DNA of 64,000 nt, taken from positions 143,292 to 207,291 of the forward strand of contig CAZIKT010000001.1 in the NCBI GenBank assembly GCA_964539885.1, written 5' to 3'. The notes beneath the pieces were generated by a model. That model saw nothing but the letters and a program-made list of their open reading frames with translations, was not told the origin of the DNA and did not search any database. Positions 18,087-33,727 of this stretch are shown here, one piece after another (the stretch's first letter is position 1; each line of letters begins with the position of its first letter). The position numbers were made by a program, and so were the translations under genes. This DNA is from an uncultured Ardenticatenaceae bacterium. Lineage in GTDB: Bacteria; Chloroflexota; Anaerolineae; Promineifilales; Promineifilaceae.

Positions 18087-18746
18087 TTACTGCAGAGACA
18101 AGAGGTAGGCTACCAGGTCGGCGATATCTTCTTCCGACAGCTGCTCACCATATAGTTGGTACATGATGTCGGCGACAAATCCATCCACAATGAAGGCGTT
18201 CGGATCCACGATCGATTCGCGCAAGTACTCCTCAGCCGACATTCCCGACACCCGGGAGGCTGCCGCCGTTCCAACGCCAAAGTGAGAAGGGCCAACGATG
18301 ACCGTGCCCTCCAGAGGAGAGTGGCAGGCCGCGCAGCCGGGGGCGCTGCCCGCTGCGCCAAGCGTTGGCAGGTTATAGAGTTGCTCACCGCGAACGGCAT
18401 CGCCAGCCGGTTCAGCGGTCGGCTCTTCGGTTGGCTCAGCGGTTGGCTCTTCGGTTGGCTCAACAGTCGCTACTTCTGTCGACTCGGCGGTAGGTTCCTC
18501 TGTCGCTTCAGCCATCGGTTCTTCTGTCGGCTCAGCCATCGGTTCCTCTGTCGGCTCAGCCATCGGTTCCTCTGTCGGCTCAGCCGTCGGTTCCTCAGTT
18601 GGCTCAGCAGCCTCTTCGTCCGCGCCGTTGTTTTCGCTGACCGCCTGGCCGTTGTTCGACTCGGCTGAGTTGTCGCCGCCCCCACAGGCGGCCAACACCA
18701 GGAGCAGCAAAAGTGTGAATGTAATCATCAACAACTTCTTCATCAA
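18087..18746 (-). CDS. monoheme class I c-type cytochrome lipoprotein with a repetitive acidic Pro/Thr/Glu linker
   Basis: Lipobox VLAACGG, a single CAACH site. The C-terminal domain is roughly 60% identical by eye to 17287..17733. The linker is built of AEPTEEP(T/M) units. Confidence 0.85.
   Translation of the reverse strand: MMKKLLMITFTLLLLLVLAACGGGDNSAESNNGQAVSENNGADEEAAEPTEEPTAEPTEEPMAEPTEEPMAEPTEEPMAEATEEPTAESTEVATVEPTEEPTAEPTEEPTAEPAGDAVRGEQLYNLPTLGAAGSAPGCAACHSPLEGTVIVGPSHFGVGTAAASRVSGMSAEEYLRESIVDPNAFIVDGFVADIMYQLYGEQLSEEDIADLVAYLLSLQ
18408..18608 (-). repeat. in-frame 24-nt tandem repeat (about 8 units) encoding an (A/V)EPTEEP(T/M) linker
   Basis: The plus strand shows repeated ggctcagccatcggttcctctgtc units with small variations. 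Confidence 0.9.
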
Positions 18747-19047: not shown

Positions 19048-19878
19048 ATGATTGACGAAGCAACGCAGACTGCCGACCGCCGCCGTTCCAGAGCCATCTT
19101 TCGCAGAAACCTGCTTTTGCCTACCGAGCATGGCTCCTGGTCCTGGTTCCTCGTTCCATTCGGGGTGGGTGTGCTGGTCGCCGGCGCCTTGACGTTGGCC
19201 ACGCTGCTGACGCTTGTCGGCGGCCTGGCGCTGTTTCTGATGCGCCAGCCGGCCACCCGCTGGGTTCGCATCCGGGCCGGCAAAGGTCGCCGCGCTGACG
19301 AATCGCTCGCCGCCGGCTGGACGGCCGCATTTGCCCTGATCGCACTCACTTGCCTGATCGGGCTGGTTGTAATGGGAGCAACCGCCCTTCTGTGGCTGAT
19401 TCCGCCGGTGCTGATCCTATTGACCATTTACCTTGCCCTGGCGTTCAGCAAGCCGTCCAACGTGCGCACGTTGTGGATGGAGGTCGCCGGCGCCGCCGGG
19501 TTGGCGCTAATGGCGCCGGCTGCCTATATCACCAGCGCAGGGGTCGCTGACGTTGTGGCGCTGCTGCTCTGGTTACTGCTGGCCGGGCAAAATCTGCTCG
19601 GGGTGCTCTATGTCCGGGTGCGCATCGCCGACACCCATGGCCGGCCTGCGCCGCGCCGCACCTCCTTTCTATTACACGTGGCGGTAACGGCATTGTTCAT
19701 ACTCATTGCGGCCGCCGGGTACTTGCCGTGGTTGGCTGTGCTCCCTTTCCTTGGCTTCGCCGTTCGCTCGGCGTGGGCGGCGGCCGCTGCGCGGCCGATA
19801 CCGAACATCAAGCGCTTCGGATTTCTGGAGATCGCGGTTGAAGTAGTTGGCGGACTGATCTTTGTGGCTGCGTTATGA
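19048..19878 (+). CDS. YwiC-like family polytopic membrane protein
   Basis: N-terminal LPTEHGSWSWFLVPFGVG motif followed by about 8 hydrophobic helices. Family recalled from memory, not searched. Confidence 0.6.
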   Translation: MIDEATQTADRRRSRAIFRRNLLLPTEHGSWSWFLVPFGVGVLVAGALTLATLLTLVGGLALFLMRQPATRWVRIRAGKGRRADESLAAGWTAAFALIALTCLIGLVVMGATALLWLIPPVLILLTIYLALAFSKPSNVRTLWMEVAGAAGLALMAPAAYITSAGVADVVALLLWLLLAGQNLLGVLYVRVRIADTHGRPAPRRTSFLLHVAVTALFILIAAAGYLPWLAVLPFLGFAVRSAWAAAAARPIPNIKRFGFLEIAVEVVGGLIFVAAL

Positions 19879-19893
19879 GCGCGTCCGAGTGAA

Positions 19894-22137
19894 GTGAGCG
19901 GGGGTGTCATGCAGGGCGAACCACCAGCAGGGCCGACCCACCTGAAACCAATCGCACGGAACTTACGCCAAATGTGCCGCCCTGGAGCGCGAGGCGGTCG
20001 AGCCTGGAAGGGCGCCTCAATCGGGGTAGCCGCCGCCTCGCTACTGATGCTCCTATGGGTAAGCCATTCTCTCTTTGCCGCTGCGGGGCCGCTTTATTTC
20101 GTCGCCGGCTTCCTGCTGTTCGTGCTGCTTGGCTTGGCGGCTGCCGGGATCGCCGTTGTCCTGCTGGCCACCCTCAACCGACTTCCCCGCGGCTATCAGT
20201 TCTGGCTGGTGGTTGGCGTCCTGGCACTCGCGCTGCCCCTGATCAACGTCCCGCTTCGGGGAGTAGCACTCCTGGTAGCCGCGGTGTTGCTCCTGTCGTC
20301 GATTGCGGGCGCGGCGCTGTGGGCGTGGTTGGATCCCCGCCGGAAGCCCTCGCGAGCCGCTCCGTTGGTGCTCGCGCTAAGTTCTGGCGGACTCCTGGCG
20401 GGTGCCGTCTGGTTGTTCCAGGTGAACACACACCGGCCGGCACAATCGCAATTCCAGCAGCAACCGTCAATACTTGAAACCGCCCTCCCGAACCCGGCAC
20501 TCCCGGGTGTTCGGGAGGTGCTTAGCCTGACGTACGGGAGTGGCGCGGATCGACATAGGCCGGAATACGGAACGCAGGCAATGCTTTTGACCGAGCCAAT
20601 TGACGGCCGTTCGTTTGTCAGCGATTGGAGCGCGCTGCGAACACAGTTCTGGGGCTTCAACCAGCGTGCAATGCCGCTCAACGGGAGAGTCTGGTACCCG
20701 GCAGGAGATGACACCGCCCCGCTGATACTGATGGTACACGGCAACCATGATATGGCCGATTTCTCTGACCCGGGTTACGCATACCTGGGAGAATTGTTGG
20801 CCAGCCGAGGGTTCATCGCGGTATCCATTGATCAGAACTTCCTGAACGGCTCCGCCGTCGGTGACATACTGGATATGGAACGCCTGAGCAACGAGAACGA
20901 CGCCCGGGCCTGGCTGATATTGCAGCACCTCGCGCAATGGCAGCGCTGGCATAATGGTGCGAACAATCCCTTCGCCGCGAGGGTTGATCTGAACAACATC
21001 GGCCTGATCGGTCACTCTCGGGGAGGGGAAGCGATTGCCGTCGCAACGCTCTTCAACTCGTTGGGGCGCTACCCTGAGAACGCGCGCGTCGCCTTCAATT
21101 TCGGCTTCAACATTCGCGCCGTCGCTGCCATCGCCCCTGTGGATGGGCAGTATTTGCCCGGCAGTCGACCAACCCCGCTGGAAAATGTCAGTTATCTTGT
21201 GCTACAGGGTTCCCATGACGCTGACGTTTCATCGTTTGCCGGCATCGATCAATACGCCCGGGTCAATTTCCCTGACGGCAGGCCGGATTGGTTTAAGAGT
21301 GCCATCTACATGTATGGTGCCAATCATGGGCAGTTTAACTCTACCTGGGGGTCGCTCGACCGCACCCCTCCCCGTGGCCTGCTCCTTGAGCGCAGCGAGT
21401 TGCTCAGTGCAACCGACCAGGAGCAGGCGGCCGCCGTTTTCCTGTCCGCCTTCATGGAAACCATGCTGCGCGGTGAATCTGACTACCGGCCATTCTTTCA
21501 GGAAGCTTCGATAGGAGCCGCCTGGTTACCGGCGACAACCTACATCACGCAGTACAGTGATCCCTCATACCATTACCTGGCTACATTCGAGGAAGACGTC
21601 GATGTGCTGACGGGCACGGCGCCGGGTGTGAGCATGAACGCCACGACCCTCACCACCTGGCGCGAACGAGCCATACACAGCAAGTGGGGCAGCCGGCAAG
21701 ACCATGCTGTCTACCTCGGCTGGGATCGCGAGCGAGCATCGCAGATGCCGACCTTCACCCTGTCTATGCTGTCGCCCCCGGGTTCACTGTCGAAGGACAG
21801 TGTTCTCCTTTTCTCTTTGGCCGATGATCGCGAGCCGGAGGAAGATCTTGCCCCACTGGAATTCACCGTTGAACTAAGCGATCGCTTCGGAGCGCGCGTA
21901 ACATCCCAGTTCGGTGAGGAGCAATTCCTTTCGCCTCCGCTGGTTGTGCCACTCGTGAAACTTGGGCTGTTCACCGACCTGGAGCCGGCCGAACCGATAC
22001 TCGCAAGTTTTCGACTGCCACTGGCTGACTTTACGGGTGATGACGCATTCCAGCCAGAGGCTCTCTCGACGATACGGTTGCTCTTTGACAGGTCGCCGGC
22101 CGGAGACGTGATCCTGGATAACATTGGCTGGCAGTGA
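19894..22137 (+). CDS. membrane-anchored alpha/beta hydrolase (multi-TM N-terminus plus large extracytoplasmic domain)
   Basis: Five to six N-terminal TM helices. Hydrolase core with ILMVHGNHD and nucleophile elbow GLIGHSRGGEA. The start is ambiguous (GTG 19894 or ATG 19909). Confidence 0.7.
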   Translation: MSGGVMQGEPPAGPTHLKPIARNLRQMCRPGARGGRAWKGASIGVAAASLLMLLWVSHSLFAAAGPLYFVAGFLLFVLLGLAAAGIAVVLLATLNRLPRGYQFWLVVGVLALALPLINVPLRGVALLVAAVLLLSSIAGAALWAWLDPRRKPSRAAPLVLALSSGGLLAGAVWLFQVNTHRPAQSQFQQQPSILETALPNPALPGVREVLSLTYGSGADRHRPEYGTQAMLLTEPIDGRSFVSDWSALRTQFWGFNQRAMPLNGRVWYPAGDDTAPLILMVHGNHDMADFSDPGYAYLGELLASRGFIAVSIDQNFLNGSAVGDILDMERLSNENDARAWLILQHLAQWQRWHNGANNPFAARVDLNNIGLIGHSRGGEAIAVATLFNSLGRYPENARVAFNFGFNIRAVAAIAPVDGQYLPGSRPTPLENVSYLVLQGSHDADVSSFAGIDQYARVNFPDGRPDWFKSAIYMYGANHGQFNSTWGSLDRTPPRGLLLERSELLSATDQEQAAAVFLSAFMETMLRGESDYRPFFQEASIGAAWLPATTYITQYSDPSYHYLATFEEDVDVLTGTAPGVSMNATTLTTWRERAIHSKWGSRQDHAVYLGWDRERASQMPTFTLSMLSPPGSLSKDSVLLFSLADDREPEEDLAPLEFTVELSDRFGARVTSQFGEEQFLSPPLVVPLVKLGLFTDLEPAEPILASFRLPLADFTGDDAFQPEALSTIRLLFDRSPAGDVILDNIGWQ

Positions 22138-22184: not shown

Positions 22185-22226
22185 TTGTCACAGAAATCAG
22201 TGACAATTGTCCCTTTTCCAATTGTC
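22185..22226. promoter_or_regulatory. clustered TTGTC-containing inverted and direct repeats upstream of the plus-strand cytochrome operon
   Basis: Inverted repeat TTGTCAC-N8-GTGACAA (22185-22206). Direct repeats CAATTGTC at 22204-22211 and 22219-22226. These lie about 160-200 nt upstream of the ATG at 22383. Confidence 0.3.
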
Positions 22227-22382
22227 GCTAGCATAGCAATCTTGAGCCTGCCAGGATGGACATACGCGCCCAGCGTAAGTAGTTCGCAGATCGGTCAAAG
22301 GATTGACCAAGCGGGTTAAGGAACCGTGCGTTGCGCCGGTCTCCCAGGTTTCCAAGCTAGGCAAAAAAAGGGGCACGATATT

Positions 22383-23666
22383 ATGAAAGCTCGGTTTCGT
22401 CTTCCTGCAATCTTGCTTATGCTGTTGGTTGCCGCCTTGATAGGGGGATGCAGAGAGCCTGCGCCGGATAGTGGGCCGGTCGGACCTGCGGGGCCGCCCG
22501 GACCGATGGGGCCGGTTGGTCCCGCCGGAGAAAACGCGTCGGCCAGCCAGCAGTACGTCGGCTCCGAAAGCTGCGGCTCTTGCCACGAGGACCAATACGC
22601 TACCTTTGTCCTGTCCGGCCATCCCTACCAGCTGACCAAGATTGAAAACGGAGAGCCACCGGTATTCCCTTATGATGAGATAACCGACGGCATCCCCTCT
22701 CCGCCGGACGGCTATGAGTGGGCCGATGTCTCCTACGTCGTGGGCGGTTATGGTTGGAAGGCGCAGTTCCTGGACCTGGACGGCTACATCATTGCGGGAG
22801 ATGAGGAGACTGCCACCCAATACAACTTAGCCAATGAAGATCTGGAGTTGCCGGCTGGCTGGGTCCCCTATCATTCCGGCGAGCAACTATCCTACGACTG
22901 CGGCACCTGCCATACGACCGGCTATCAGCCGGAAGGTCATCAAGATGCCTTGGAGGGAATTGTGGGCGTCTGGGCCTACCCCGGCGTCCAGTGTGAGGCG
23001 TGCCACGGGCCGGGCAGCCTGCATGCCGCCGATCCCTATGGAGTCCGCATGGTCCTCGATCGCTCCTCACAGATGTGCGGCGATTGCCACATGCGCGACA
23101 ACCCGGCGCTGATCGACGCCGGCGACGGCCTTGAGCAGAATTATCAGCAATATGACGACCTGTACAACTCCCGCCATTTCGCCATTAGCTGCGTGACTTG
23201 CCACGATCCGCATGCCGGCGTGCGCTTCACCGACCCGGAGGCAACGAGCGCACAGGGTATTCGGCAATCATGTGAGAATTGCCATTGGGCGCAGGTCATA
23301 CAGAAGAATGAGCGCCGGCACTTCAACCTGACCTGCACCACATGCCACATGCCGGCCATGGCCGTCTCCGCGCAATCCATTGCGGAGGAATTCAGCGGCG
23401 ATATTCACTCCCATCAATTCGCCATCAACACGGACCCGAACGCGCCGCAGTTCAGTGAAGACGGCAGTCAGGTAATGCCGTACATCACGCTGCAATATGC
23501 CTGCCAGCAGTGCCATAACGGTTCCTTTTTCAGTGAGCAGGACCTTGTGACGCTGTCGGAGATGGCCCGTGACTATCACGAGCCGGCGACCGCCACGCCT
23601 ACGCCGGAACCGACGTCGACAGTCGAATCAGGCGAGGAGACGCCCACCCCCACGCCGACTCCGTAG
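22383..23666 (+). CDS. octaheme c-type cytochrome lipoprotein with an N-terminal collagen-like stalk
   Basis: Lipobox LIGGC. Eight CXXCH sites (CGSCH, CGTCH, CEACH, CGDCH, CVTCH, CENCH, CTTCH, CQQCH). First site resembles the cytochrome c554-type context (C..CH...Y......GH). Pro/Thr-rich C-terminal tail. Confidence 0.9.
   Translation: MKARFRLPAILLMLLVAALIGGCREPAPDSGPVGPAGPPGPMGPVGPAGENASASQQYVGSESCGSCHEDQYATFVLSGHPYQLTKIENGEPPVFPYDEITDGIPSPPDGYEWADVSYVVGGYGWKAQFLDLDGYIIAGDEETATQYNLANEDLELPAGWVPYHSGEQLSYDCGTCHTTGYQPEGHQDALEGIVGVWAYPGVQCEACHGPGSLHAADPYGVRMVLDRSSQMCGDCHMRDNPALIDAGDGLEQNYQQYDDLYNSRHFAISCVTCHDPHAGVRFTDPEATSAQGIRQSCENCHWAQVIQKNERRHFNLTCTTCHMPAMAVSAQSIAEEFSGDIHSHQFAINTDPNAPQFSEDGSQVMPYITLQYACQQCHNGSFFSEQDLVTLSEMARDYHEPATATPTPEPTSTVESGEETPTPTPTP
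22473..22535 (+). repeat. collagen-like Gly-X-Y repeat (7 triplets) within the octaheme cytochrome
   Basis: GPV GPA GPP GPM GPV GPA GEN, starting 7 residues after the lipobox Cys. Confidence 0.85.
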
Positions 23667-23700
23667 CGGAGCCGCAATCAAGTGACTCGGAGGTAATCCT

Positions 23701-25425
23701 ATGCGCAGGCTCTTCAGGGGTATCAAGCATTTCTTTCTTCCTCCACCAGGGAGTTCAGTCTGGCTGCGCATCCTGCCGTTTGTCGTCCTTGGTGTACTGA
23801 CAGTATTTGTGCTCAGCGGCTCGTCTTACGCCTGGACGTACACCAACTCGCCTGAGTTTTGCGGGAGCGCCTGCCACACGATGCCGCCCAACTACAGCAC
23901 CTATCTGCAATCGCCGCACGCCCGCGTGCAGTGCGTCGAATGTCATATTGGCCGGGATGTGATCACCACCCAATTCACCCGCAAGGCTGGCGACCTGCGA
24001 CATGTCTACTACACGATTACTCAAGACTTCGAGTATCCCATTCATTCCGAGGCGATGCGCCCGGCGCGGGACAGCTGTGAAAGATGTCATTTCCCCGAGA
24101 AGTTTTCCGACGATAGCCTGCGCCTTATCCGCGACTATGAGGGTGAAGACAACTCGCTGCTCACCACGCATCTACTGATGAAGACCGGCGGTGGCAGCCA
24201 ACGCGAGGGCCTTGGACGGGGCATACATTGGCACATCGAAAACGAGGTGTGGTATCTGGCCGAGGACCAGCTCGAGCAAGACATTCCTTATGTGCGCGTC
24301 GTAGACGAAGATGGGCAGATTTCGGAATTCTACGACATTGAATCCGGCATCACGCCGGATGATGTTGCCGGCAAAAGCCTGGAGCTGATGGACTGTATCA
24401 ATTGCCACAATCGCGTGACCCACACCGTGCCCAGCCCGGAAGACGCCATCGACCTGGCCTTCACGAGCGGGCAGTTGTCCAGAGACCTGCCGGCAATTTA
24501 CGATGCCGCGTATGAGCGGCTCAGTCAGATCTACACCGACAGTCAGGCCGCGGAAGAGAGCTTTGACTCCGTGGTGGATTTCTATGCCGAGGGGTATCCG
24601 GACATCTACAGTGAGCGCCAAGAAGAAATCGAGGCGATCCCGGCCGTGCTCGCGGACCTCTATAGTCAGATGGTGTTCGGCGACCAGCGCGTGGATTGGA
24701 AGACACATCCAGATAATCTGGGCCATGTCAACTCTCCCGGCTGTTTTCGCTGCCACGACGGCAAGCATCTGAGCGGCACAGGGGAGGCGATCCGCCTGGA
24801 GTGCAACCTGTGTCATTCAGTGCCGATCATCAGCGATGAAACCACCCTGGTCACTAACCTGGAACTTGTGCGCGGGCCGGAACCGCCGTCGCACATTCAT
24901 AGCAGTTGGATAGCGTTGCACGGTAAAGCCATTGATTCCTCATGCGCGGCCTGCCATGAACCGGCCGATCCGGAAATGGATTACACCGCGCTGGAAGGCA
25001 GACCTCCCAATGACGGCTCTTTTTGCGGCAATGCGGCCTGTCATGGCCCTGACTGGGAGTATGCCGGCTTCGACTCCCCGGCGCTGGAACCCTTCCTGGA
25101 GCGCCAGCTTTACATCCTGCAAAACACCAGCCCTTATCTGCTGGAAGGCGTGCCGCGCACATATGACAGTACTTTCAAAGCGCTGTTCGATGGACGTTGC
25201 GTCTTCTGCCATGGGACGGAGGAGACCAAGGCAGACCTGGACCTGAGTAGCTATGAGGGGATCATGCAAGGCGGCAAAAGCGGACCCGTCATCGTTCCTG
25301 GCGACCCGGAGAACAGCGCACTGATCGCAGTGCAATCGGCCTCCCAGGAGCACTTCGGGCAGGTATTGGATGACGAATTGGTCGCGCTGTGGGAATGGCT
25401 TTTGGCGGGGGCGCCTAGGGAATAA
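23701..25425 (+). CDS. NapC/NirT-like membrane-anchored multiheme cytochrome with a C-terminal Planctomycete-cytochrome-C-like domain
   Basis: N-terminal TM helix, then a NapC/NirT-like context (SPEFCGSACHTM...SPHARVQCVECH). Seven CXXCH sites plus CGSACH (CX3CH) and CGNAACH (CX4CH). C-terminal FDGRCVFCHG...LDLSSYEGIMQGG...VPGDPENSALI. RBS GGAGG lies before the ATG. Confidence 0.9.
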   Translation: MRRLFRGIKHFFLPPPGSSVWLRILPFVVLGVLTVFVLSGSSYAWTYTNSPEFCGSACHTMPPNYSTYLQSPHARVQCVECHIGRDVITTQFTRKAGDLRHVYYTITQDFEYPIHSEAMRPARDSCERCHFPEKFSDDSLRLIRDYEGEDNSLLTTHLLMKTGGGSQREGLGRGIHWHIENEVWYLAEDQLEQDIPYVRVVDEDGQISEFYDIESGITPDDVAGKSLELMDCINCHNRVTHTVPSPEDAIDLAFTSGQLSRDLPAIYDAAYERLSQIYTDSQAAEESFDSVVDFYAEGYPDIYSERQEEIEAIPAVLADLYSQMVFGDQRVDWKTHPDNLGHVNSPGCFRCHDGKHLSGTGEAIRLECNLCHSVPIISDETTLVTNLELVRGPEPPSHIHSSWIALHGKAIDSSCAACHEPADPEMDYTALEGRPPNDGSFCGNAACHGPDWEYAGFDSPALEPFLERQLYILQNTSPYLLEGVPRTYDSTFKALFDGRCVFCHGTEETKADLDLSSYEGIMQGGKSGPVIVPGDPENSALIAVQSASQEHFGQVLDDELVALWEWLLAGAPRE

Positions 25426-25437
25426 GCTTTCCAAAAG

Positions 25438-25475
25438 AGAGGTCCCGTGGGATGCAGTATCGTCACGGGACCTCT
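25438..25475. terminator. hairpin between the convergent cytochrome operons
   Basis: AGAGGTCCCGTG (25438-25449) pairs with CACGGGACCTCT (25464-25475), with a 14-nt loop. An A-run on the plus strand (CCAAAAG) gives a CUUUUGG tail for minus-strand transcripts. There is no T-run for the plus strand. Confidence 0.5.
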
Positions 25476-25544
25476 ACGATTACTCAGTTCAGGCCGCGAG
25501 AATCAGTCGTTTCCGACCAACCGGCAACCGTCTTGCTGTACAGC

Positions 25545-27797
25545 CTAAGGCGCCGGTTCTTCAGGGACGACAACCGGCGGCCGGCTCAGCGCTGATACAT
25601 CCCCACCCACACTGGCAATCGAATCGTAAAGGATCTGCATCACGTAATCGCCGTTGTGGGCGAACGCGCCGGGATCCTTCTGCGAATACTGATAGTTGTA
25701 GGCGGCGCGCAACAGGGCCGGCGTCCAGGATGCATACCCTTCGGTATCGGCGGCAGACGCTACACCATCGGCGTCCGCATCCACAAAGAAGTATGGATAG
25801 CGAGCCGGGTTGTACACAATCGGCGTGCCGATCGTGTTAGCCGCGTAACCTTGGAATGCGGCGTAGAGTAACTCGGCTAGTGTTGCCACCTCGCCGGCGA
25901 TGCCTTCGGTTACGTCGCCATCCCCATCGTAATCGACCGGAGTTTCATCATCATCGTCGAAGCGGATGTTGACCAGATCGTCCATGGTCTCGACGCCCTC
26001 GTGGCAGTCAGCGCATTCCTCGAACTGCACTTCCAGGGTATGGGTACCGTGACATTCCGTGCAGGCGTTGAAAGCGTTAACGTGTTCGTTTTGGCCGTTG
26101 TACTCCAGGCCCTCGAACTCATATGCCCCTTGAGCCTCAGTTCCAAAGAGCGTCGCGCCGGCGGCGAAGTAATGGATGTTGCGGAATCCCAGCGAATCCG
26201 ACACCTCGTCATCGCCCAGCTCACCTATCGCGCGATTCACACTCGCCGTGGACTCGCGCCCCTGGTGGCAATTCAAGCAGAGGTTGCTGCCGGGATCGTC
26301 CAGGGCTAGCTCGGCTCCACTTGGGAACGTGACTGACTCAACCTCATAGATGGTGAACTCGCCCACATCACTGTGGCAGGTGGAGCAGGCCAAGCCGTTG
26401 GAAGCCGGCTGGTTGATGGCCACGTTCTGCTCGATGTACAGCGGCAGGCCGGCAGCGCTGTGGCAGCGGCTGCAGCTCCCCGGCACGATCCCACCGTCTT
26501 CTTCGCCGTCCCAGTGCCGGAAGGCTTCTTCGGAGCCGGCGAAGTGCCCATGATCAATTCGCCGCAGGGCGGCCAAATCCACCGGGGCTGCGATCGATCC
26601 ATTCAGATCTTCGATCGAGTCGTACAGCAACTGGATGATGTATTTGCCGCCATGTGCGAAGCGACCAGGATCCTTCAGGGACACCTGGTAGTTGTATGCG
26701 GCGCGGGTCAGGCGCGGAGTCCAGGTGGCATAGCGCTCGGTCTCATCTTCGCCGATGGTACCATCGCCGTTGGCGTCGATGAAGAAGTAGGGATGGCTAT
26801 CGCCGTTGTAGCCAATGGGCGAGCCGGCTACCTCGTTTGCATATGCTTGCACTGAGGTGAGCAGAATGTCCCGCATGCCGTCAATCTCGAATGCAATGCC
26901 TTCGTCCATGTCGCCGTCGCCGTCGTAGTCAACCAACGACCCCGGCATACGCACGTCCTGGAAATCCTCAACTGTTTCCACGTCAGTGTGGCATGCAGTG
27001 CACTCCTCAACCTGCACCTCCAGGGTGTGCGGGTCATGGCAAGAGTTGCACGTGTTGTACCCATCTACATGGTCGTAACGGGCATCATATGATTTCCCCG
27101 CGTATTCATAACCACCCTTCGCCAGCGTGCCGTACTGCGTCGCTGCCGCCGCGTAGTAATGGATATTGGAGAAACCGAGGTCTTCACTCACTGTGTCGGG
27201 TGCCTCCGCCAATCCCGCGTCCGCGATCTTCTGATCAACAGAAACGGTAGATTCGCGACCCTGGTGACACTCCATGCAGCGCGACTCATCACCCAATCCG
27301 GTGACTTCAAGCCCTGATGGGAAGACCACACTGTCCTTGGTAATCGTTACGTCATTGTGGCAGGCAGCGCACTCCACCGTGGTACCGATCGGCGCCGCCA
27401 CATCCACCACACCGGCTTCCGATCCATCGAGACCAAGGAAATCCTGGTATCCCGGCGTGCTGTGACACTTGGCGCAACTCGTCGGAATCTCTGCTGGATC
27501 CTCTTCGTTCCAGTGGACAAACGCCTCGGCGGTGGTGTCGTTGTGCGGAGACGATTCCCAGCGCTCGACGAAGACCATCTCGTCCGCCGCGCTGACTTCG
27601 GGCACCGGACATTCTTCACATACCGGCGCCTCAACTTCCGGGCACACAGCCTCTTCCACGTCCGGACATTCCGCCGCGACTTCCACCTCCACAATACGTG
27701 TTACTTCTACCGGCTCTTGCTGTTCGTCGCTACATGCCGCCAGAGCCAGGGCGACGAGGAGCAGTAGCGCCATGATAATCAGGCTTTTTCGTTGCAT
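25545..27797 (-). CDS. decaheme c-type cytochrome lipoprotein built from a tandemly duplicated pentaheme module
   Basis: ATG at 27797, lipobox LALAAC. Ten CXXCH sites (CAKCH, CAACH, CMECH, CNSCH, CTACH / CSRCH, CSTCH, CLNCH, CTECH, CADCH). The two halves align residue-for-residue over about 310 aa. Confidence 0.9.
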   Translation of the reverse strand: MQRKSLIIMALLLLVALALAACSDEQQEPVEVTRIVEVEVAAECPDVEEAVCPEVEAPVCEECPVPEVSAADEMVFVERWESSPHNDTTAEAFVHWNEEDPAEIPTSCAKCHSTPGYQDFLGLDGSEAGVVDVAAPIGTTVECAACHNDVTITKDSVVFPSGLEVTGLGDESRCMECHQGRESTVSVDQKIADAGLAEAPDTVSEDLGFSNIHYYAAAATQYGTLAKGGYEYAGKSYDARYDHVDGYNTCNSCHDPHTLEVQVEECTACHTDVETVEDFQDVRMPGSLVDYDGDGDMDEGIAFEIDGMRDILLTSVQAYANEVAGSPIGYNGDSHPYFFIDANGDGTIGEDETERYATWTPRLTRAAYNYQVSLKDPGRFAHGGKYIIQLLYDSIEDLNGSIAAPVDLAALRRIDHGHFAGSEEAFRHWDGEEDGGIVPGSCSRCHSAAGLPLYIEQNVAINQPASNGLACSTCHSDVGEFTIYEVESVTFPSGAELALDDPGSNLCLNCHQGRESTASVNRAIGELGDDEVSDSLGFRNIHYFAAGATLFGTEAQGAYEFEGLEYNGQNEHVNAFNACTECHGTHTLEVQFEECADCHEGVETMDDLVNIRFDDDDETPVDYDGDGDVTEGIAGEVATLAELLYAAFQGYAANTIGTPIVYNPARYPYFFVDADADGVASAADTEGYASWTPALLRAAYNYQYSQKDPGAFAHNGDYVMQILYDSIASVGGDVSALSRPPVVVPEEPAP

Positions 27798-27923
27798 AGT
27801 TCTGCGCCCCTTTATTATCATTCACTCCCGGGTCCGGAGGGCATGCGCACAGGGCAGGTGCTCCTGACAGACCCTTTTCCTGTACAAGGCCGGCTGACCA
27901 ATGACCGGCGTGACGACCATCTC

Positions 27924-28769
27924 TTATGGCGCCGGCGTAACGGTTGGCACCACAGTAATGATGGCCGTCTCTTCAAAGGTAAATGCCCAGATTATTACGA
28001 CTAACAGCAGTGCGCCCACCACCAAGCTGAACGCAAAGAAGATTCGCTGCCGGTGTCGCAATACGGGCTTCTCAACGATTGGCCACGGTTCGCCTCCGGC
28101 ATCTAGCCGCTCCAGTTCCAATGCATGTTCCTCCTCCATTTGCTTACGCGACATCGTGCCTGTAAACATACTGCGATTAAAATGCTTGATGTGCACATTG
28201 TACATGTGCCAGACGATCAGGGCGGAGACAGCGAGGATGGCCTCCCAGCCATGCGCCGCCTTCGCCATGGGAATGAGTTCGCCGGGAAAGATAGAGGTAA
28301 AGGCAATGGGGTTCCACATGATGAAGCCGGTAATGGTCATCAGCGCGGTACCCCAAAGTACAGCCCAGTACTCGAATTTTTCGCCGAAGTTGAACTTCAG
28401 CATCTTGGGCGGCTCCTCCTGCAAACCCAAATTGTGTTTGACGGTGCCCGTTAAGTCGTCCAGGTCCTTGCGGGTCGGGAACATCGGCATGCGTTCCCGC
28501 CGGACAAAAAAGCGATATGCAGCCACCCCCAAACTATAGATTGAGCCGAGCACCAGCACGACCGCGGCATAATGGTGAATGATGCGCACATTGGTGATGC
28601 CCCCCAACCAACCGACAAGCGTCTGTGCCCACGGTTGAGTCTCCCACATTTGTGGCAGGCCCGTGATCGCCAGAGTTGTGAAGCTGAAGATCAGTATGAG
28701 ATGTTCGATCCGCGCTCCCAGGCGGAATCGGGGGTAATGGGTTGGTAACTCGCGGGTGGACTCACTCAT
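27924..28769 (-). CDS. b-type cytochrome membrane subunit (FdnI / Ni-Fe-hydrogenase cytochrome b-like)
   Basis: Four core TM helices with conserved His (IEHLIL, IIHHYA, AAHGWE, VWHMYN), plus an extra C-terminal TM helix. Lies immediately downstream of the 14-heme gene. Confidence 0.8.
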   Translation of the reverse strand: MSESTRELPTHYPRFRLGARIEHLILIFSFTTLAITGLPQMWETQPWAQTLVGWLGGITNVRIIHHYAAVVLVLGSIYSLGVAAYRFFVRRERMPMFPTRKDLDDLTGTVKHNLGLQEEPPKMLKFNFGEKFEYWAVLWGTALMTITGFIMWNPIAFTSIFPGELIPMAKAAHGWEAILAVSALIVWHMYNVHIKHFNRSMFTGTMSRKQMEEEHALELERLDAGGEPWPIVEKPVLRHRQRIFFAFSLVVGALLLVVIIWAFTFEETAIITVVPTVTPAP

Positions 28770-28800
28770 CAGTACGCTTTACCTCATTTCCGTCAACATT

Positions 28801-30477
28801 TCATTCCAGTTGGCGACCAAAACGCAGCCGAACGCGCCGGAAGATATCCGTCGCAACCAAGAAACCGAACCCGATCAGCGTCATGGGAATAACGATGCGG
28901 TAGAAGGTTTCAACCAGGAAGACGCCGGTGTTGTTTTGCAGCGACGGCTCGTAATGACTGGTCCAGGCTGCCGGGAAGTTCTCCGTAGCGTTCGGGTGAC
29001 ATTTCTGGCACGTCTCTAGCAGGTTAGCCTGGATACCGTTTTCGGGATCATCGGGCCGCCGAATGTCGTGCACGCCGTGGCAGTCATAGCAGACCGCCTC
29101 GTTAAAAGGAGCGTTCGGATCTGCGGTCGGATCAAACAACACCGCGGAAGTGCCGTGAAAATCTGACACGTAGGTGTCAAACACGCTGGTGGAGATCTCA
29201 TATTTGGTCATCAGCTCTTTATCAGCGTGGCAACGCGCACAAATCAGCGGCGACCGGGAGCGATAAAGGGTGGTGGTGGGGTCCTGGATATTGTGCACGC
29301 CGTGACAGTCTATGCAGGTGGGCACATCCGGATTGCTGTTTTGCGCCAGCGCCTCACCGTGAACGCTGTCCACGTACTCGTCATGGATCTCCTGGTGGCA
29401 TTGGGCACACGTCTCTGAGATGCGTTGTCGAGGCTGATTCGGCGGCGGCGTATCGTGCGCGCCGTGACAGTCGGTGCAGACCGCGCCATCCAGATTGCCG
29501 CCGGCGACCAGGGCGCCATGTACATCATCTACGGCCTTCTCCGCATTCTGTTCGTGACAGCGATGGCAAAGCAGGCTGTTGGCGACAGTGTATTCACGCA
29601 AGCTGCCGGTGTTTGCCGGCGCCTCATGCGGAAATCTGTAGTTCTCGTGACAGTCTGTGCAATTCAGTGGTTGCCAGGGATTATCAGCGCCATGCACTGA
29701 TCCACCAAAGTGGGTCCGATCGACGGTTAGCGATAGCTCCTCCCCATTATCCAGCGTCAGTGTACGCCCCGGCTGATCGTGACAGGCCAGGCAATACTGG
29801 TTATCCACCTGGGACGTGAATAGGCCGTCTCGGATGATTGTCTCAAGGATTTCCGGGTCGGTTTGTGGGACGTCGTTTTTGGTATGACAGTTGACGCATG
29901 CCTGGACACCTTCCGGAGTGGTGAGTGTGGCAACCGGCATCACCTCGTGCGAGCCATGACAATCCGTGCAGACGACTGGATTATCGCTATCCGGGCCGGC
30001 GTGCGCGGTTTCATGCGGCTGCTGATGACAACTCAAACAACTCTCTGAGCGAGCGATCTGGAAGCTGCGCAGATCCGCGGCATCTGTCGGCCCGTGCGGA
30101 AACTGATAATCGCCGGCCGCATGACAACTTGTGCAATTGAGCGGCTCTTCGGCCGACGCGCCGTGAACGGAATCGGCCAATGTCTGCGGGTCCACGGCTA
30201 CCGGCAGCTGCGACCCGTCCGGCAACTCAAGGATTGCCTGTGAACCCTCATGGCAGATCCGGCATTGCAGGTCATCGCCGGGGTGAGGCAGGGGTTCGGC
30301 CGATTGCGCCAACACGCTAGCGACCGGGAGAGCGGACGGTGCAGGGCTATACTTCGTCGGCGACGGATCGCTGGCGGCGCGGCCGGCAGCAAACCACAGC
30401 GCCGATATGAGGAGTACCAGCGCCAGTGCCATACTCACACTGATCAGACTACGATTTCGTCGCTGTGACGAGCCCAA
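28801..30477 (-). CDS. 14-heme c-type cytochrome with a signal peptide and a C-terminal TM anchor
   Basis: 14 CXXCH sites, many in the doubled-CXXCH context C..CHG.H (CTDCHGSHE, CTDCHGAHD, CIDCHGVHN, CYDCHGVHD). The TTG start at 30477 has a GAGGAGAG RBS 9 nt upstream. C-terminal helix IVIPMTLIGFGFLVATDIF. Confidence 0.9.
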   Translation of the reverse strand: MGSSQRRNRSLISVSMALALVLLISALWFAAGRAASDPSPTKYSPAPSALPVASVLAQSAEPLPHPGDDLQCRICHEGSQAILELPDGSQLPVAVDPQTLADSVHGASAEEPLNCTSCHAAGDYQFPHGPTDAADLRSFQIARSESCLSCHQQPHETAHAGPDSDNPVVCTDCHGSHEVMPVATLTTPEGVQACVNCHTKNDVPQTDPEILETIIRDGLFTSQVDNQYCLACHDQPGRTLTLDNGEELSLTVDRTHFGGSVHGADNPWQPLNCTDCHENYRFPHEAPANTGSLREYTVANSLLCHRCHEQNAEKAVDDVHGALVAGGNLDGAVCTDCHGAHDTPPPNQPRQRISETCAQCHQEIHDEYVDSVHGEALAQNSNPDVPTCIDCHGVHNIQDPTTTLYRSRSPLICARCHADKELMTKYEISTSVFDTYVSDFHGTSAVLFDPTADPNAPFNEAVCYDCHGVHDIRRPDDPENGIQANLLETCQKCHPNATENFPAAWTSHYEPSLQNNTGVFLVETFYRIVIPMTLIGFGFLVATDIFRRVRLRFGRQLE

Positions 30478-30565
30478 AACTCTTATCTCTCCTCAACAAA
30501 GCGCCAAGAACAAATCACTTTACGCGCCGACAATCTGTTCTGCGGCGGAATCGCGGCTTGTGACC

Positions 30566-31858
30566 CTAGGGGGTCGGAGTTCCCTCGGTCGGCGCTCCTT
30601 CTTCGATCACTTCTTCAGCCGACGCCTCAACCGGAGGATTATGATATCCTACCGCGGTTTCGATCAACTCCTCATCCGTCTTGTCTCTGCCCAAGCCATC
30701 CGGGTTGTGGCAGCTCCGGCAAGAAGAATTCAGCGCGAGGCGTGGATGGGCCACTGTGCCGTCTTCGTTGAACTGCTCGATCTGGAGCGGGTCAATGGAC
30801 ACTTGATGCGTGCGCATATCGCCTGTGAACTTGGCCGGATCGCCGGCAGCAACCTGGATTATCCTGGGCATGTGGCAGGAAACACAATTCACGTCTATTC
30901 GAGCGTGCACTTCGTTATTCTGGTTCTGCACCTGCGCGAAATGACAGTTCTCGCAATTGACAATTGTGGTAGGCAGTTCAGCTTCACGAAGCTGGACTAC
31001 CCCGGTATGCGGGTCATGACAGACCACACAGTCGAGTATCACATGCTTGCCTTCAAAGAGGTCCTGATACTGGTCGTGATGCTGGATGAAGCCGTCGCTG
31101 CCGGCGACTTCGTCAACCGTTCCCCGGGCGTGACAGGCGGCGCAAGCTGCACTGTCCCGGTCCACGACTGGACGGAAGGAAAGCGGGTGATTGGCATGCA
31201 GGCTGCCGGGGCCGTGACATTCCTCACAACCGATGCCCGCTTCCGCCCAGGTGCCGGTTATGCCCGGCAGACCATCCTGGTTGCCGGATGAGGAGTAGCC
31301 GGTCGTGTGGCAGCGGCCGCAATCGTATGAAATCTCCTCTCCCGGGTGATAGGCTACCCATTCGTCGCGAGTCTCCAACTCGTCATTAGGAAGATTGTAC
31401 TGCGTGGTGGCTTCGGCGCTGTCTCCGGTAATGATCAAGCCGTCCAGACCGATAAAGCGAGCCTTCCAGTTATAGCCGCCTATTACAAACGCTATGTCTT
31501 CCCAGGTGTATCCCTCCGGCGGGTCAGGCACTCGACTGAATGGATAGGTCGGCTCCTCTCCATCAACGACCGCGTTGAGCTGGAAATTGTGCCCACTCAG
31601 AGCGTAGATATCAAACAATTCCTGGTGGCACTCTGCGCAGGCTTCGCTTCCAATGTATTGCGCCGGCTCGAAACTCACCCCGTCCGCTCCTGCCGGCCCG
31701 GACGCGCCGGGCGCTCCATCTCTGCCGGTGGGTCCAGGAAGGCCCTGTGGTCCCTGCGGACCTGGAGGTCCTTGCGGTCCTTCCTGCGGGGCGCAGGCGG
31801 TTATTAACAGGCCTACAGCGATGAAGATGATCCAACTAGAGAGATGAATGCGCCTCAT
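30566..31858 (-). CDS. octaheme c-type cytochrome lipoprotein with an N-terminal collagen-like stalk (paralog of 22383..23666)
   Basis: Lipobox LITAC. Eight CXXCH sites (CAECH, CGRCH, CEECH, CAACH, CVVCH, CENCH, CVSCH, CRSCH). Roughly 50% identity by eye to the other octaheme protein. RBS GGGAGGGAA. Confidence 0.9.
31673..31780 (-). repeat. collagen-like Gly-X-Y repeat (12 triplets) within the octaheme cytochrome
   Basis: [36 protein letters not shown], starting 4 residues after the lipobox Cys. Confidence 0.9.
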
Positions 31859-32275: not shown

Positions 32276-33727
32276 TCAAAGCATTGCCAGCGCTTCATGA
32301 ATCCTGACCATCGCCAGCGTATCAAGGCCGCAATACCTGCGCAGTTCATTCATCAGGAACTCCCTCTCCAGCTGATCTTCACAGGTGATCATTTGTTCCC
32401 AGGCGGCCTGCGCCTGGGAACCGTTCTGCACAATCAGATGTTCGTAGCTTAGCTCAGGCACGATCACCGGCAGCACCGACTTCAGCGAATTCGATTTGCC
32501 GAAGCCGTAATGGTGATAACTGCGCTTGATCAGCTCGTATTGGTCCCACAATCGGCCGATGATATGCAGCAACCGCTCGCTATGCGCCGGAAAGGCCTCA
32601 GCCAATTCAAGCAGCCGCGACCGCTCAAAAGAGGCGTAGTAAACAACTATGTGTCCCCGTTCTCCAATATCGTTCAACAACGACGTGACCAGCGTTTGTC
32701 GCGGATCTGTGCCGTCCAAGTGTAGGAACTCGCGGTGCTCAAGTGCGCCGTTTTCGTGCAGGATATGGCAACTGTACTGGAATGGTACGTTCTGATAGGG
32801 CCGGCAGCCGGCGTAGATCGGTACCGGGTACTCGATGGTCTCAAAATCAAGGAAGTGCAGCGGGAATTCCAGCCCTGCCAGCTCGCCGCGAAGCGGCTCG
32901 TAGTCAATCTGTACCAACCGCTGATTGATACGGGAGGTGAAGGTGCGCTGATTCTCCGTAAGCGCGAAGTCAGCCGGCACGTCTGCCAACGACAGTATGC
33001 CCATTGCGCGAAGGCGCAACTCCCGTTGGCCGCCCAAACGTGGAATGTCATAGATGGTAAGGCCCGGTACGAGCTGCCAGCAGTGGTCATATAGCGGGCA
33101 GCGATCCGGCCTCTGACAGTGGCGGCCGACGTCAATCTGTGGAGCTCGAGGCTGGGAATTGACCTCGCGCATTGCCGCTATGTCCTCCGTTATCCGACCT
33201 GTCATCGACACAGCCTGCTCCGTCACGTCAGCTAGTACGAACAGGTCCTCAAGGTCAGGGTACCGGCACTGTCCGTTGATATGCATGATGCTGACCTGGC
33301 TCACCGGCATCCCGGCCTGGCGCAACACGTAGTATTGGAAAGCGACATCCGGCAAGTGCTCTTCCTTAACGCTGAGCCCTGCCTTAACCTCGATCAGATG
33401 CCAGCTCTGATCCCGGCGCAGCAGGATGTCACTTCTACATAACAGGTCTTCCGCAGCGAATGTCGCCTGGAAAAGCACGTTCGCCCCCGCATCCAGAGCG
33501 TCCCGGGTACGCGAGACCATTTCCGCCGGCTGCGGCTCATAAGGAATGAGCACACCTCCTAAGAATCGGTCGCGAGCCGTGCGATCTACGTCCTGTCCCA
33601 GGCGCATCCGGCGCAGGGCGGCGTCATCCGGCGGCGCGACCAGGTCGGGCTGATACTCCTCAAGCCAAAGTCTCTTTGCGCAGCGCAGGAAGTTCATGTA
33701 GCGGCCCTTGGTGATGATCTTGCTCAC
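32276..33727 (-). CDS. DUF2779-like protein (putative PD-(D/E)XK-type nuclease fold)
   Basis: The N-terminus (SKIITKGRYMNFLRCAKRLWLEEY) resembles the DUF2779 family start as I recall it. IEVK motif and a C-terminal Cys cluster. Not verified by search. Confidence 0.6.
   Translation of the reverse strand: MSKIITKGRYMNFLRCAKRLWLEEYQPDLVAPPDDAALRRMRLGQDVDRTARDRFLGGVLIPYEPQPAEMVSRTRDALDAGANVLFQATFAAEDLLCRSDILLRRDQSWHLIEVKAGLSVKEEHLPDVAFQYYVLRQAGMPVSQVSIMHINGQCRYPDLEDLFVLADVTEQAVSMTGRITEDIAAMREVNSQPRAPQIDVGRHCQRPDRCPLYDHCWQLVPGLTIYDIPRLGGQRELRLRAMGILSLADVPADFALTENQRTFTSRINQRLVQIDYEPLRGELAGLEFPLHFLDFETIEYPVPIYAGCRPYQNVPFQYSCHILHENGALEHREFLHLDGTDPRQTLVTSLLNDIGERGHIVVYYASFERSRLLELAEAFPAHSERLLHIIGRLWDQYELIKRSYHHYGFGKSNSLKSVLPVIVPELSYEHLIVQNGSQAQAAWEQMITCEDQLEREFLMNELRRYCGLDTLAMVRIHEALAML

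Follow-up and report, generated by a model that had tools for sequence, protein, structure and literature searches.

A conserved multihaem cytochrome gene cluster of Anaerolineae as a candidate extracellular electron transfer pathway for a porin-less envelope

Introduction

CbcL of Geobacter sulfurreducens (also MtrH/MtoC) combines in one polypeptide a nonahaem c domain and a HydC/FdnI-like dihaem cytochrome b of six transmembrane (TM) helices, and it serves low-potential acceptors. ImcH, an NrfH-like and electroneutral protein, serves high-potential acceptors in Geobacter (10.1101/2023.05.03.539133). Zhong and Shi detected no homologue of CbcL among Chloroflexi and described in Anaerolinea thermophila a homologue of ImcH with one TM helix, a CX3CH motif and five to nine CXXCH motifs (PMC6295460). 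On the acceptor side, OcwA of Thermincola potens is composed of c554-like and NrfA-like modules, bears two open haems and displays weak nitrite and hydroxylamine activity (PMC6703420). In the present work, we analysed a stretch of 64,000 nucleotides (hereafter the window) from an uncultured Ardenticatenaceae bacterium (assembly GCA_964539885.1, contig CAZIKT010000001.1), in which a cluster of six genes, named A to F and located at 22383-31858, encodes five multihaem cytochromes c and one cytochrome b. We give roughly even chances to the reading that these six genes form two parallel routes from quinol to the cell surface and hence a pathway of extracellular electron transfer (EET) for a porin-less envelope.

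A first-pass annotation of the window, made from the letters alone, had considered the gene set suited to a Chloroflexota-type envelope, and the cluster indeed belongs to the Chloroflexota class Anaerolineae. Bacteria of this class rank with the most abundant ones of sediments and aquifers, of anammox and activated-sludge reactors, and of bioanodes. Their richness in multihaem cytochromes has been noted in general terms only (10.1101/2021.08.23.457424), and Chloroflexota possess no genes for the BAM machinery that assembles beta-barrels or for lipopolysaccharide (LPS) (PMC13319060).

Results

Six genes in two convergent operons

The six open reading frames are genuine genes and are arranged as two convergent operons, A-B on the plus strand and F-E-D-C on the minus strand. 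Gene A (22383..23666) encodes an octahaem c lipoprotein of 427 residues with 8 CXXCH motifs, a paralogue of the F product, and gene B (23701..25425) a nine-haem membrane cytochrome of 574 residues with PF03264 and PF07635 domains. On the minus strand, gene F (30566..31858) encodes an octahaem c lipoprotein of 430 residues with 8 CXXCH motifs and a collagen-like stalk, gene E (28801..30477) a 14-haem cytochrome c of 558 residues with a signal peptide and a C-terminal TM anchor, gene D (27924..28769) an FdnI/HydC-type dihaem cytochrome b of 281 residues (PF01292) devoid of any haem c motif, and gene C (25545..27797) a decahaem c lipoprotein of 750 residues whose 10 CXXCH motifs are distributed over two tandem five-haem-plus-helical units. 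Independent gene calls on identical metagenome contigs place the start of A at 22383 and not at 22326, and that of C at 27797 and not at 27821.

Motif counting gives 8 CXXCH in A, 7 in B, 10 in C, none in D, 14 in E and 8 in F, that is 47, and the number of candidate haem c sites rises to 49 (8+9+10+14+8), as the first-pass annotation had it, only when the CX3CH and CX4CH motifs of B are included. Of the 53 CXXCH strings obtained when the window is read in six frames, 47 lie in genes A, B, C, E and F, a clustering far beyond chance. In A, B, E and F, every Cys is used by a haem motif or by the lipobox. The signal peptides of A, C and F end at a lipobox Cys (IGGC, LAAC and ITAC, respectively), and by signal peptide, lipobox and the presence of Lgt in the window these three proteins would be bacterial lipoproteins, with acylation predicted. 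Other elements of the same annotation also held when examined against domain and structure databases: an FdnI-like cytochrome b, through PF01292 and four aligned His residues; two membrane modules of the quinol type (B, and D with the C-terminally anchored E), whose anatomy is supported by Pfam and structure-profile matches; and three lipid-anchored multihaem proteins, through lipoboxes that are conserved in the homologues of C and F.

The term "island" used in that annotation proved misleading. The GC content of the cluster (0.565-0.59) equals that of the rest of the window (0.56-0.63), the flanking genes show synteny to those of a close relative, the sole variable part being a block made of a YwiC-like gene, a hydrolase-like gene, A and B, and the gene set recurs across Anaerolineae, in 80 of 80 fetched loci. 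Flat GC content and flank synteny argue against foreign origin, and a horizontally acquired island was thus rejected. As for enzymes to which the cluster could be coupled, no gene for a molybdopterin, Fe-S, copper or siroheme reductase or for a beta-barrel flanks it in the window, and the window likewise contains no gene for a formate dehydrogenase or hydrogenase catalytic subunit, nor any oxidase or Nir/Nor gene; PFOR and PPDK are encoded. No beta-barrel porin gene was found among the open reading frames of the window or among the families that co-occur in 80 related loci (see below). The statement that neither reductase nor porin is present therefore stands for the window and has to be qualified for its relatives, 15-17 of these 80 loci encoding NrfC/NrfD-like proteins upstream of F.

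D and E resemble a split CbcL-type module

Protein D reaches 53.5 bits with PF01292 (cut-off 30.1) and matches Escherichia coli FdnI (1kqf_C) with an E-value of 1e-10. Its His residues stand opposite chain positions His18, His57, His155 and His169, which we take to be the b-haem ligands of FdnI, so that by this alignment D would keep all four of them. The protein remains below the NCBIfam model of the formate dehydrogenase gamma subunit (TIGR01583, 67.2 vs 115.85) and consists of four core TM helices followed by a fifth, C-terminal helix that FdnI does not have. Protein E carries an N-terminal signal peptide, 14 CXXCH motifs that are invariant in 12 homologues and a C-terminal hydrophobic helix that is found in 113 of 120 homologues; its matches to MtrA (6r2q), DmsE and NrfB are partial only.

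The relation between both proteins is best seen in gene fusions. A search with D of 1.8 billion representatives retrieved 263 relatives at an E-value of 1e-30 or lower. In several of these, residues ~225-549 of E, which comprise haems 6-14, are fused to D as a nonahaem module: P0391 (51% and 48% identity), P0402, P0464, P0465, P0489 and P0510, with nine CXXCH motifs and the D domain in a single chain in P0391, P0464, P0465 and P0489. Furthermore, D is fused to the full length of C in P0382 (48% and 48% identity), and it precedes between one and six cytochrome c domains of the PSCyt1 type in P0362, P0364, P0390 and P0412. The E proteins of Anaerolineales carry nine haems, and their D proteins have a PSCyt1 cytochrome c domain at the C-terminus. 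These fusions indicate that E and D make up one module of CbcL architecture, that C docks on D, and that the C-terminus of D faces outwards, because the fused PSCyt1 domains must lie outside the membrane. Indeed, the single helix of E and the five helices of D add up to the six of the fused CbcL architecture, and as judged by this described architecture E+D would represent a split CbcL-type module. None of the E-D fusion relatives bears the name CbcL, the cluster look-up having returned generic names only.

A conserved neighbourhood in three lineages of Anaerolineae

A scan of species-representative genomes gave 575 confirmed stretches, a number that is not deduplicated, as two patterns can match one gene, and that is no count of species; the best 80 were fetched. 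All of these 80 loci belong to the Chloroflexota class Anaerolineae except two that are likely mis-binned contigs, and the E-D core is also present in a metagenome-assembled genome (MAG) labelled Litorilinea aerophila, a species that is an aerobe. For each of E, F and C, more than 100 clusters of close homologues (51-70% identity) were retrieved, nearly all of them either unlabelled or from Anaerolineae/Chloroflexota. Gene D directly follows E in 78 of the 80 loci, that is in all those whose contig runs past the 3' end of E. The commonest gene order is F-E-D-C, found in Promineifilaceae and Ardenticatenaceae, and two such loci (L010 and L007) resemble the window in carrying B-A as well, on the opposite strand. 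The order is F-A'-B-E-D-C in Caldilineaceae and E-D-B in Anaerolineales, with F or C sometimes adjoining. Of the 39 loci with enough flanking sequence, all have D, 28 have A/F, 20 have B and 18 have C. This synteny survey thus finds the gene families beside E-D in three lineages of Anaerolineae, and the joint occurrence of five families in shuffled orders argues for a functional unit.

The closest relative, GCA_964452775.1, is 85-89% identical and displays the order VWA...F-E-D-C, after which come the two genes for monohaem cytochromes c and the regulator pair. It has no YwiC-hydrolase-A-B block, which suggests that the route formed by A and B is a separable add-on.

Directly upstream of F, 15-17 of the 80 loci encode an eight-haem TM cytochrome, a 4Fe-4S protein of the NrfC type with a twin-arginine (TAT) signal and an NrfD-like protein, a set that would be a third quinol-interacting module. 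Examples are found at L030:4631-7968 and L016:15779-17203, both in Promineifilaceae-type loci, and the set is not in this window. Genes for CcmE/F/H of the System I maturation pathway adjoin in 10-14 related loci. A further protein of 701 residues (L067:14079-16238), with a b6 subunit-IV-like N-terminus recognized by eye, seven cytochrome c motifs and a PSCyt1 domain at its end, is of a type encoded close to E-D in 7 loci; it may connect the system with a complex of the bc type.

B has the features of a one-helix quinol dehydrogenase

Protein B possesses a single N-terminal TM helix, at once followed by the first haem motif. Residues 27-122 match PF03264 (51.0 bits vs 24.1) and a C-terminal monohaem domain matches PSCyt1 (PF07635, 47.7 vs 22). 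In structure-profile comparisons, the N-terminus matches NrfH (2j7a_C, E-value 7e-6) and the C-terminus the iron oxidase FoxE (5mab, E-value 4e-6). Besides seven CXXCH motifs, B contains CGSACH (CX3CH) at residue 54 and CGNAACH (CX4CH) at residue 442, and both odd motifs are kept in homologues of 45-66% identity (L010, L054). The first motif reads CGSACH-T-M, with a Met two residues past the His as in haem 1 of NrfH. The protein lies under every equivalog cut-off of NCBIfam (NrfH, 63.5/134.2; TorC, 36/455; NapC/NirT, 24.6/310.6) and displays the features by which ImcH proteins have been recognized, namely an atypical CX3CH, five to nine CXXCH and a NapC/NirT-like region (PMC6295460). Judged by these published family criteria, B would be a one-helix quinol dehydrogenase of the NrfH/NapC type that is ImcH-like.

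A and F are OcwA-related octahaem lipoproteins with a collagen-like stalk

Proteins A and F share 44% identity. The former matches OcwA (6i5b) with an E-value of 1.2e-12 as well as the Pfam families Cytochrome_C7, C554 and Paired_CXXCH_1. The profile of the F family matches OcwA (6i5b_A) with an E-value of 1.3e-18 over residues 64-247 (12-198 in OcwA), a region that covers haems 1-4 and an extra beta-sheet domain; weaker matches are seen with MccA, octahaem nitrite reductase and NrfA, at E-values of 3e-7 to 5e-5, and with OmhA. The C-terminal half of the profile aligns weakly to OcwA (second domain, E-value 20). By these profile comparisons, A and F fall in the OcwA/c554/MccA/NrfA superfamily, and their closest solved relative is OcwA, a surface terminal reductase, rather than a dedicated N or S enzyme. 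Neither contains a CXXCK motif, nor a spare Cys for the copper site or the CX15CH haem of MccA. At least 10 conserved non-motif His residues are available for eight haems, so every haem could be bis-His coordinated. In F, the pair His260-His261 is nearly invariant. An AlphaFold2 model of F built from a 36-sequence alignment has a pLDDT of 51 and a pTM of 0.40, the beta-rich region 90-180 being its sole confident part.

A second feature of these proteins is the segment that follows the lipobox. In F, 11 Gly-X-Y triplets start 5 residues past the lipobox Cys, and in A 6 triplets follow it. This uninterrupted, Pro-rich run begins 0-5 residues past the lipobox Cys throughout the F family and counts 10-14 triplets in 118 of 120 homologues, the lipobox itself being present in 92-116 of 120. 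The Pfam Collagen model scores just under its cut-off of 27.2 (25.2 bits for F, 14.9 for A), and the F family profile matches collagens (down to an E-value of 3e-6) and BclA. If folded as a triple helix, an F stalk of 12-14 triplets at ~0.29 nm per residue would measure ~10-12 nm, which implies trimers. We also considered whether the length of the stalk follows the haem number of E, and this was rejected, as 11-16 triplets are found whether E has 9, 14 or 15 haems. Full-text literature searches returned no report of a collagen-stalked cytochrome, and a preprint on multihaem evolution makes no mention of 'collagen'.

C is a duplicated decahaem lipoprotein

Protein C begins with its lipobox, continues with an acidic, low-confidence linker of ~65 residues and ends with the 2x5-haem units, whose halves are 47% identical over 330 residues, as expected from an internal duplication of a five-haem-plus-helical unit. 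More than 100 homologues exist at 60-70% identity, and the lipobox is present in 103-115 of 120. No relative was found in the PDB by sequence; a profile search of the PDB gave MtrA alone, with an E-value of 0.005, and Foldseek with an AlphaFold2 model (pLDDT 69) retrieved nothing from the PDB at an E-value of 0.001 or lower. Longer members of the family were observed. Homologues of 1200-1300 residues (P0249, P0251, P0252, P0261 and others) contain three Big_2 and invasin-like Ig domains, and homologues of ~1050 residues (P0243, P0245, P0246) contain a third five-haem repeat and thus 15 haems; both types point to a surface-exposed, modular family.

The linker of C (27620-27730, residues ~45-65) also contains four extra Cys residues in a CP..CP..C..CP pattern, possibly serving in disulfides or metal binding. 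This pattern is kept only at 71% identity or above, and distant homologues have EVTR/VEVEV repeats at this place.

Neighbouring genes and transcription signals

Two paralogous lipoprotein monohaem cytochromes c (Pfam Cytochrom_C) are encoded on the minus strand at 17287-17733 and 18087-18746, the second with a long PT/E-rich repeat linker. Both have been kept immediately next to C in the closest relative (L085, L086), and neither turned up in the other 80 loci. As partners on the soluble side they are possible, their membership of the system being uncertain. The same uncertainty applies to a sensor kinase with GAF and HisKA_3 domains and a NarL/LuxR response regulator (15143-16306 and 16318-16974, minus strand; Pfam), presumably of DevS/DevR-like architecture. 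Comparable pairs are encoded close to E-D in 21-27 of the 80 related loci, and the pair may be a redox regulator of the cluster.

Upstream of A, a YwiC-like membrane protein and a membrane-anchored hydrolase-like protein of 747 residues are encoded on the plus strand (19048-22137). Both were considered as members of the system and rejected, having no counterpart in any of the 80 loci, and the distribution of the YwiC-hydrolase-A-B block suggests a recent rearrangement or insertion. On the other side, the cluster is flanked by a DUF2779 protein that weakly matches a Cas4-like nuclease (32276-33727, minus strand) and by a secreted VWA-domain protein of 1278 residues (34261-38097, plus strand), whose gene adjoins F in the closest relative too. 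Prolipoprotein diacylglyceryl transferase Lgt, the prerequisite enzyme for lipid anchors, is encoded at 61505-62719 on the minus strand and has an N-terminal extension of ~170 residues that matches no Pfam family.

Between the stop codons of B and C, a hairpin at 25438..25475, assigned to neither strand, was spotted by eye. It has 17 pairs, 12 of which form an uninterrupted inverted repeat, and it folds with a dG of -26.8 kcal/mol (z -3.9 on the plus strand, z -3.6 on the minus strand). A U-run trails it on the minus-strand transcript only. This hairpin is likely a bidirectional terminator; it is not listed by the consensus terminator scan. Promoter and terminator scans of the sequence gave as many hits as in shuffled sequence and were therefore uninformative.

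Discussion

Two candidate routes from quinol to the cell surface

How the six proteins might cooperate can be outlined from their predicted anatomy. In a first route, encoded by the F-E-D-C operon, D would exchange electrons with quinol/quinone, and its two b haems would carry them across the membrane. Held against D by its C-terminal helix, E would extend a 14-haem chain on the outer face, and C, with its 10 haems, lipid anchor and ~65-residue linker, would dock on the outward C-terminal side of D. Both E and C would then exchange electrons with F, an OcwA-like candidate for the terminal or distal redox partner, which is probably trimerised and would stand ~10 nm off the membrane on its collagen-like stalk. 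In a second route, encoded by A-B, B would oxidise the menaquinol pool at the outer face in an electroneutral manner and pass the electrons to A. Gene content, haem motifs, b-haem ligand positions, homologies, the conserved neighbourhood and the fusions are established here; we infer the contacts beyond those seen in fusions, including those with F and A, as well as trimerisation, surface exposure and the direction of electron flow; Fe(III)/Mn(IV) oxides, humics, partner cells and electrodes are candidate acceptors or donors.

The presence of one ImcH-type and one CbcL-type module suggests a division of labour comparable to that of Geobacter, and the two routes would then serve acceptors of different potential, as ImcH and CbcL do. 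Quinol oxidation at the cytoplasmic side by an FdnI-type cytochrome b spends membrane potential, which fits low-potential acceptors and, equally, the reverse direction. The idea of a porin-less conduit draws its support from the kinship of A and F with OcwA and from the fusion of C relatives to Big_2/invasin Ig surface domains. The first-pass annotation had likewise proposed a lipoprotein-based electron conduit, and this part agrees with the OcwA kinship and the Ig-fused relatives of C, EET and its direction being reached by inference only.

Several observations weigh against two routes to the surface. The E-D core is very widespread, the MAG labelled Litorilinea aerophila included, and this fits general respiration as well as EET. 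The native reaction of FdnI-type cytochromes b is the reduction of quinone on the cytoplasmic side, and quinol oxidation by them costs membrane potential. The A-B block is absent at this position from the 85-89% identical relative, so the routes are separable, and the length of the stalk does not depend on the haem number of E. The model of F is of too poor a quality for a fold search (pLDDT 51). No description of the cluster was found in full-text literature searches. Finally, Ardenticatena maritima 110S, the one Chloroflexota isolate with demonstrated EET, reportedly has no cytochrome with more than seven haems (PMC5808234) and thus apparently lacks this cluster.

A bolder form of the proposal concerns the F-E-D-C operon taken separately. 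Its products might constitute an undescribed respiratory complex and the main electron exit or entry of Anaerolineae, with a split CbcL-type module, two haem wires (E and the structurally novel decahaem C) and trimeric octahaem cytochromes on stalks of collagen triple helix that span the wall. We regard this as possible and rather doubtful. If it is true, a "cytochrome on a stalk" would be a solution to EET in porin-less envelopes.

Internal respiration, electron uptake or catalysis

Because the core is very widely distributed, reportedly including aerobic lineages, a role in internal respiration is a live rival. E-D and B would then be quinol:cytochrome c oxidoreductases that replace or supplement complex III and feed monohaem cytochromes c and, through these, oxidases or denitrification, an assignment that we consider unlikely; that the lipoprotein cytochromes would act as buffers or relays within the wall space rather than as exits seems to us just as unlikely. 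This scheme would account for a core found in hundreds of Anaerolineae stretches, among them that of the presumed aerobe Litorilinea aerophila, for the class-I-like PSCyt1 domain at the end of B and of many D homologues, comparable to the docking monohaem domain of TorC-type proteins, and for the two lipoprotein monohaem cytochromes c beside the cluster, both here and in the closest relative. The b6 subunit-IV-like multi-cytochrome c protein near a related core and the System I maturation genes in 10-14 loci point the same way. However, the 32 haems of E, C and F and the 8 of A are far above the need of a quinol:cytochrome c step, and the stalks and long linkers keep A, C and F off the membrane. 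Moreover, the nearest solved relatives of A and F are surface EET cytochromes, relatives of C carry adhesin-type Ig domains, and there is no oxidase or Nir/Nor gene in the window.

Another possibility is that the same hardware works inwards, taking up electrons from Fe(II), reduced humics, cathodes or partner cells, with D reducing quinone in a charge-separating manner. We hold this to be improbable, as we do its variant in which the monohaem cytochromes c carry the electrons to an oxidase. In its favour, D belongs to the FdnI/HydC type, B ends in a domain similar to the iron oxidase FoxE (E-value 4e-6), homologues of CbcL/MtoC are present in Fe(III)-reducing and in Fe(II)-oxidising bacteria, the direction leaving no mark in the sequence (PMC6295460), and Ardenticatena shows anodic as well as cathodic current (PMC5808234). 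Nevertheless, the window encodes PFOR and PPDK, as is typical of organotrophs that ferment and have to get rid of electrons. At neutral pH, quinone reduction by Fe(II) is, as a matter of general knowledge, uphill for most Fe(II) species. Proteins of the ImcH type have so far been implicated in quinol oxidation only (PMC6295460).

A further alternative, which we likewise deem improbable, is that A and F reduce or detoxify nitrite, hydroxylamine, NO, sulfite or tetrathionate with electrons from B (in the manner of NrfH) and from E-D: it could invoke the profile matches to MccA, octahaem nitrite reductase and NrfA (3e-7 to 5e-5), the nrfHA-like adjacency of A to the NrfH-like B, the NrfC/NrfD-like pair upstream of F in 15-17 loci, reminiscent of mccCD beside mccA, and a His260/261 pair in F that resembles the HH motifs situated above the open haems in OcwA, itself weakly active on nitrite and hydroxylamine, but it is opposed by A and F having neither CXXCK nor additional Cys residues for a copper site or CX15CH haem like those of MccA, by the at least ten conserved non-motif His that would allow eight bis-His haems, by OcwA being by far the best match (1e-18 vs 3e-7 or weaker), by a ~10 nm collagen-like stalk that speaks against a tight NrfHA-like membrane complex, and by C and the 14-haem E being left with no role. 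The homology check named in the first-pass annotation, whether octahaem and decahaem proteins are catalytic enzymes of N or S compounds, thus turned out in favour of OcwA as nearest to A and F, with no catalytic motif, and is tempered by the weak activity of OcwA on nitrite and hydroxylamine.

Significance

Returning to the two proposed quinol-to-surface routes, the cluster provides a concrete, conserved and testable gene set for the electron traffic of porin-less Anaerolineae to and from their surroundings. Its membrane core, E-D, has fusion evidence for contacts, and its two candidate quinol entry points mirror the potential-dependent split between ImcH and CbcL in Geobacter. The fusion proteins themselves provide Rosetta-stone evidence and lend themselves to expression as single chains. 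If these routes operate as proposed, they would extend the mechanisms of EET beyond the Mtr/Pcc model of diderms and the Thermincola model of Gram-positive bacteria, and the genes would allow respiration on iron, humics and electrodes to be traced in metagenomes. Should the system serve internal respiration, it would instead define, for a major bacterial class, a new quinol:cytochrome c oxidoreductase.

Comparison with known systems

The first-pass annotation did not recognize the gene combination as a described system, and we found no description of it either, yet its parts are recognizable: an ImcH/NrfH-type B, a split CbcL-type E+D and A/F of the OcwA superfamily. With CbcL, the likeness lies in the nine haems and one TM helix of E ~225-549, in the five helices and four b-haem His of D, and in the fused relatives that match its architecture; furthermore, other multihaem cytochrome genes adjoin, as reported for cbcL/mtoC (PMC6295460). 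The differences are that the module is split here in two genes, that E has five extra N-terminal haems, and that D is followed by the gene of the decahaem lipoprotein C, which in one relative is fused to D. B shares with the ImcH/NapC-NirT-NrfH proteins a TM helix followed by the first haem, the CX3CH motif, a Met after the His and a PF03264 score above the cut-off. It differs from ImcH by its one TM helix, as in the Anaerolinea thermophila type, where ImcH has three, and from the family as a whole by its nine haem motifs including a CX4CH, by the added PSCyt1 domain and by reaching no equivalog cut-off.

The region over which A and F align with OcwA (Thermincola potens, 6i5b) comprises c554-like haems 1-4 and the beta-sheet domain; the C-terminal part of OcwA is an NrfA-like pentahaem module with a three-helix bundle, and its open haems 2 and 5 lie under His-His motifs. 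OcwA has nine haems, whereas A and F have eight and are lipoproteins with a collagen-like stalk that OcwA does not have. Like the systems of Thermincola and of OmhA (Carboxydothermus ferrireducens, 6qvm), the cluster would belong to a porin-free envelope in which multihaem cytochromes lead from membrane to surface, but the other proteins of the Thermincola pathway have no counterpart here, and no CbcL-type module was found described for Thermincola.

With MtrCAB and Pcc, the cluster shares long chains of bis-His c haems that lead away from a quinol dehydrogenase, and E partly matches MtrA/DmsE and NrfB. It differs in having neither beta-barrel porin nor outer membrane, in the anchoring of E by its own helix beside the cytochrome b, and in distal proteins that are lipid-anchored to the cytoplasmic membrane. 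The distinction from the Shewanella Mtr and Geobacter Pcc systems drawn in the first-pass annotation is borne out, no porin being found in the window or among the co-occurring families. As in Scl1/2 and BclA, an uninterrupted Pro-rich Gly-X-Y run separates the membrane or surface anchor from a globular head, with the difference that the run of A and F is short (10-14 triplets in the F family) and the head an octahaem cytochrome.

By analogy, the cluster may thus work like the porin-less OcwA pathway of Thermincola fed by the Geobacter-type quinol modules ImcH and CbcL. As judged by score, none of its proteins is a member of any curated equivalog family. What appears to be new is the split complex of E, D and C, the decahaem family to which C belongs, the presence of collagen-like stalks on cytochromes, and the recognition of the whole set as a conserved Anaerolineae module.

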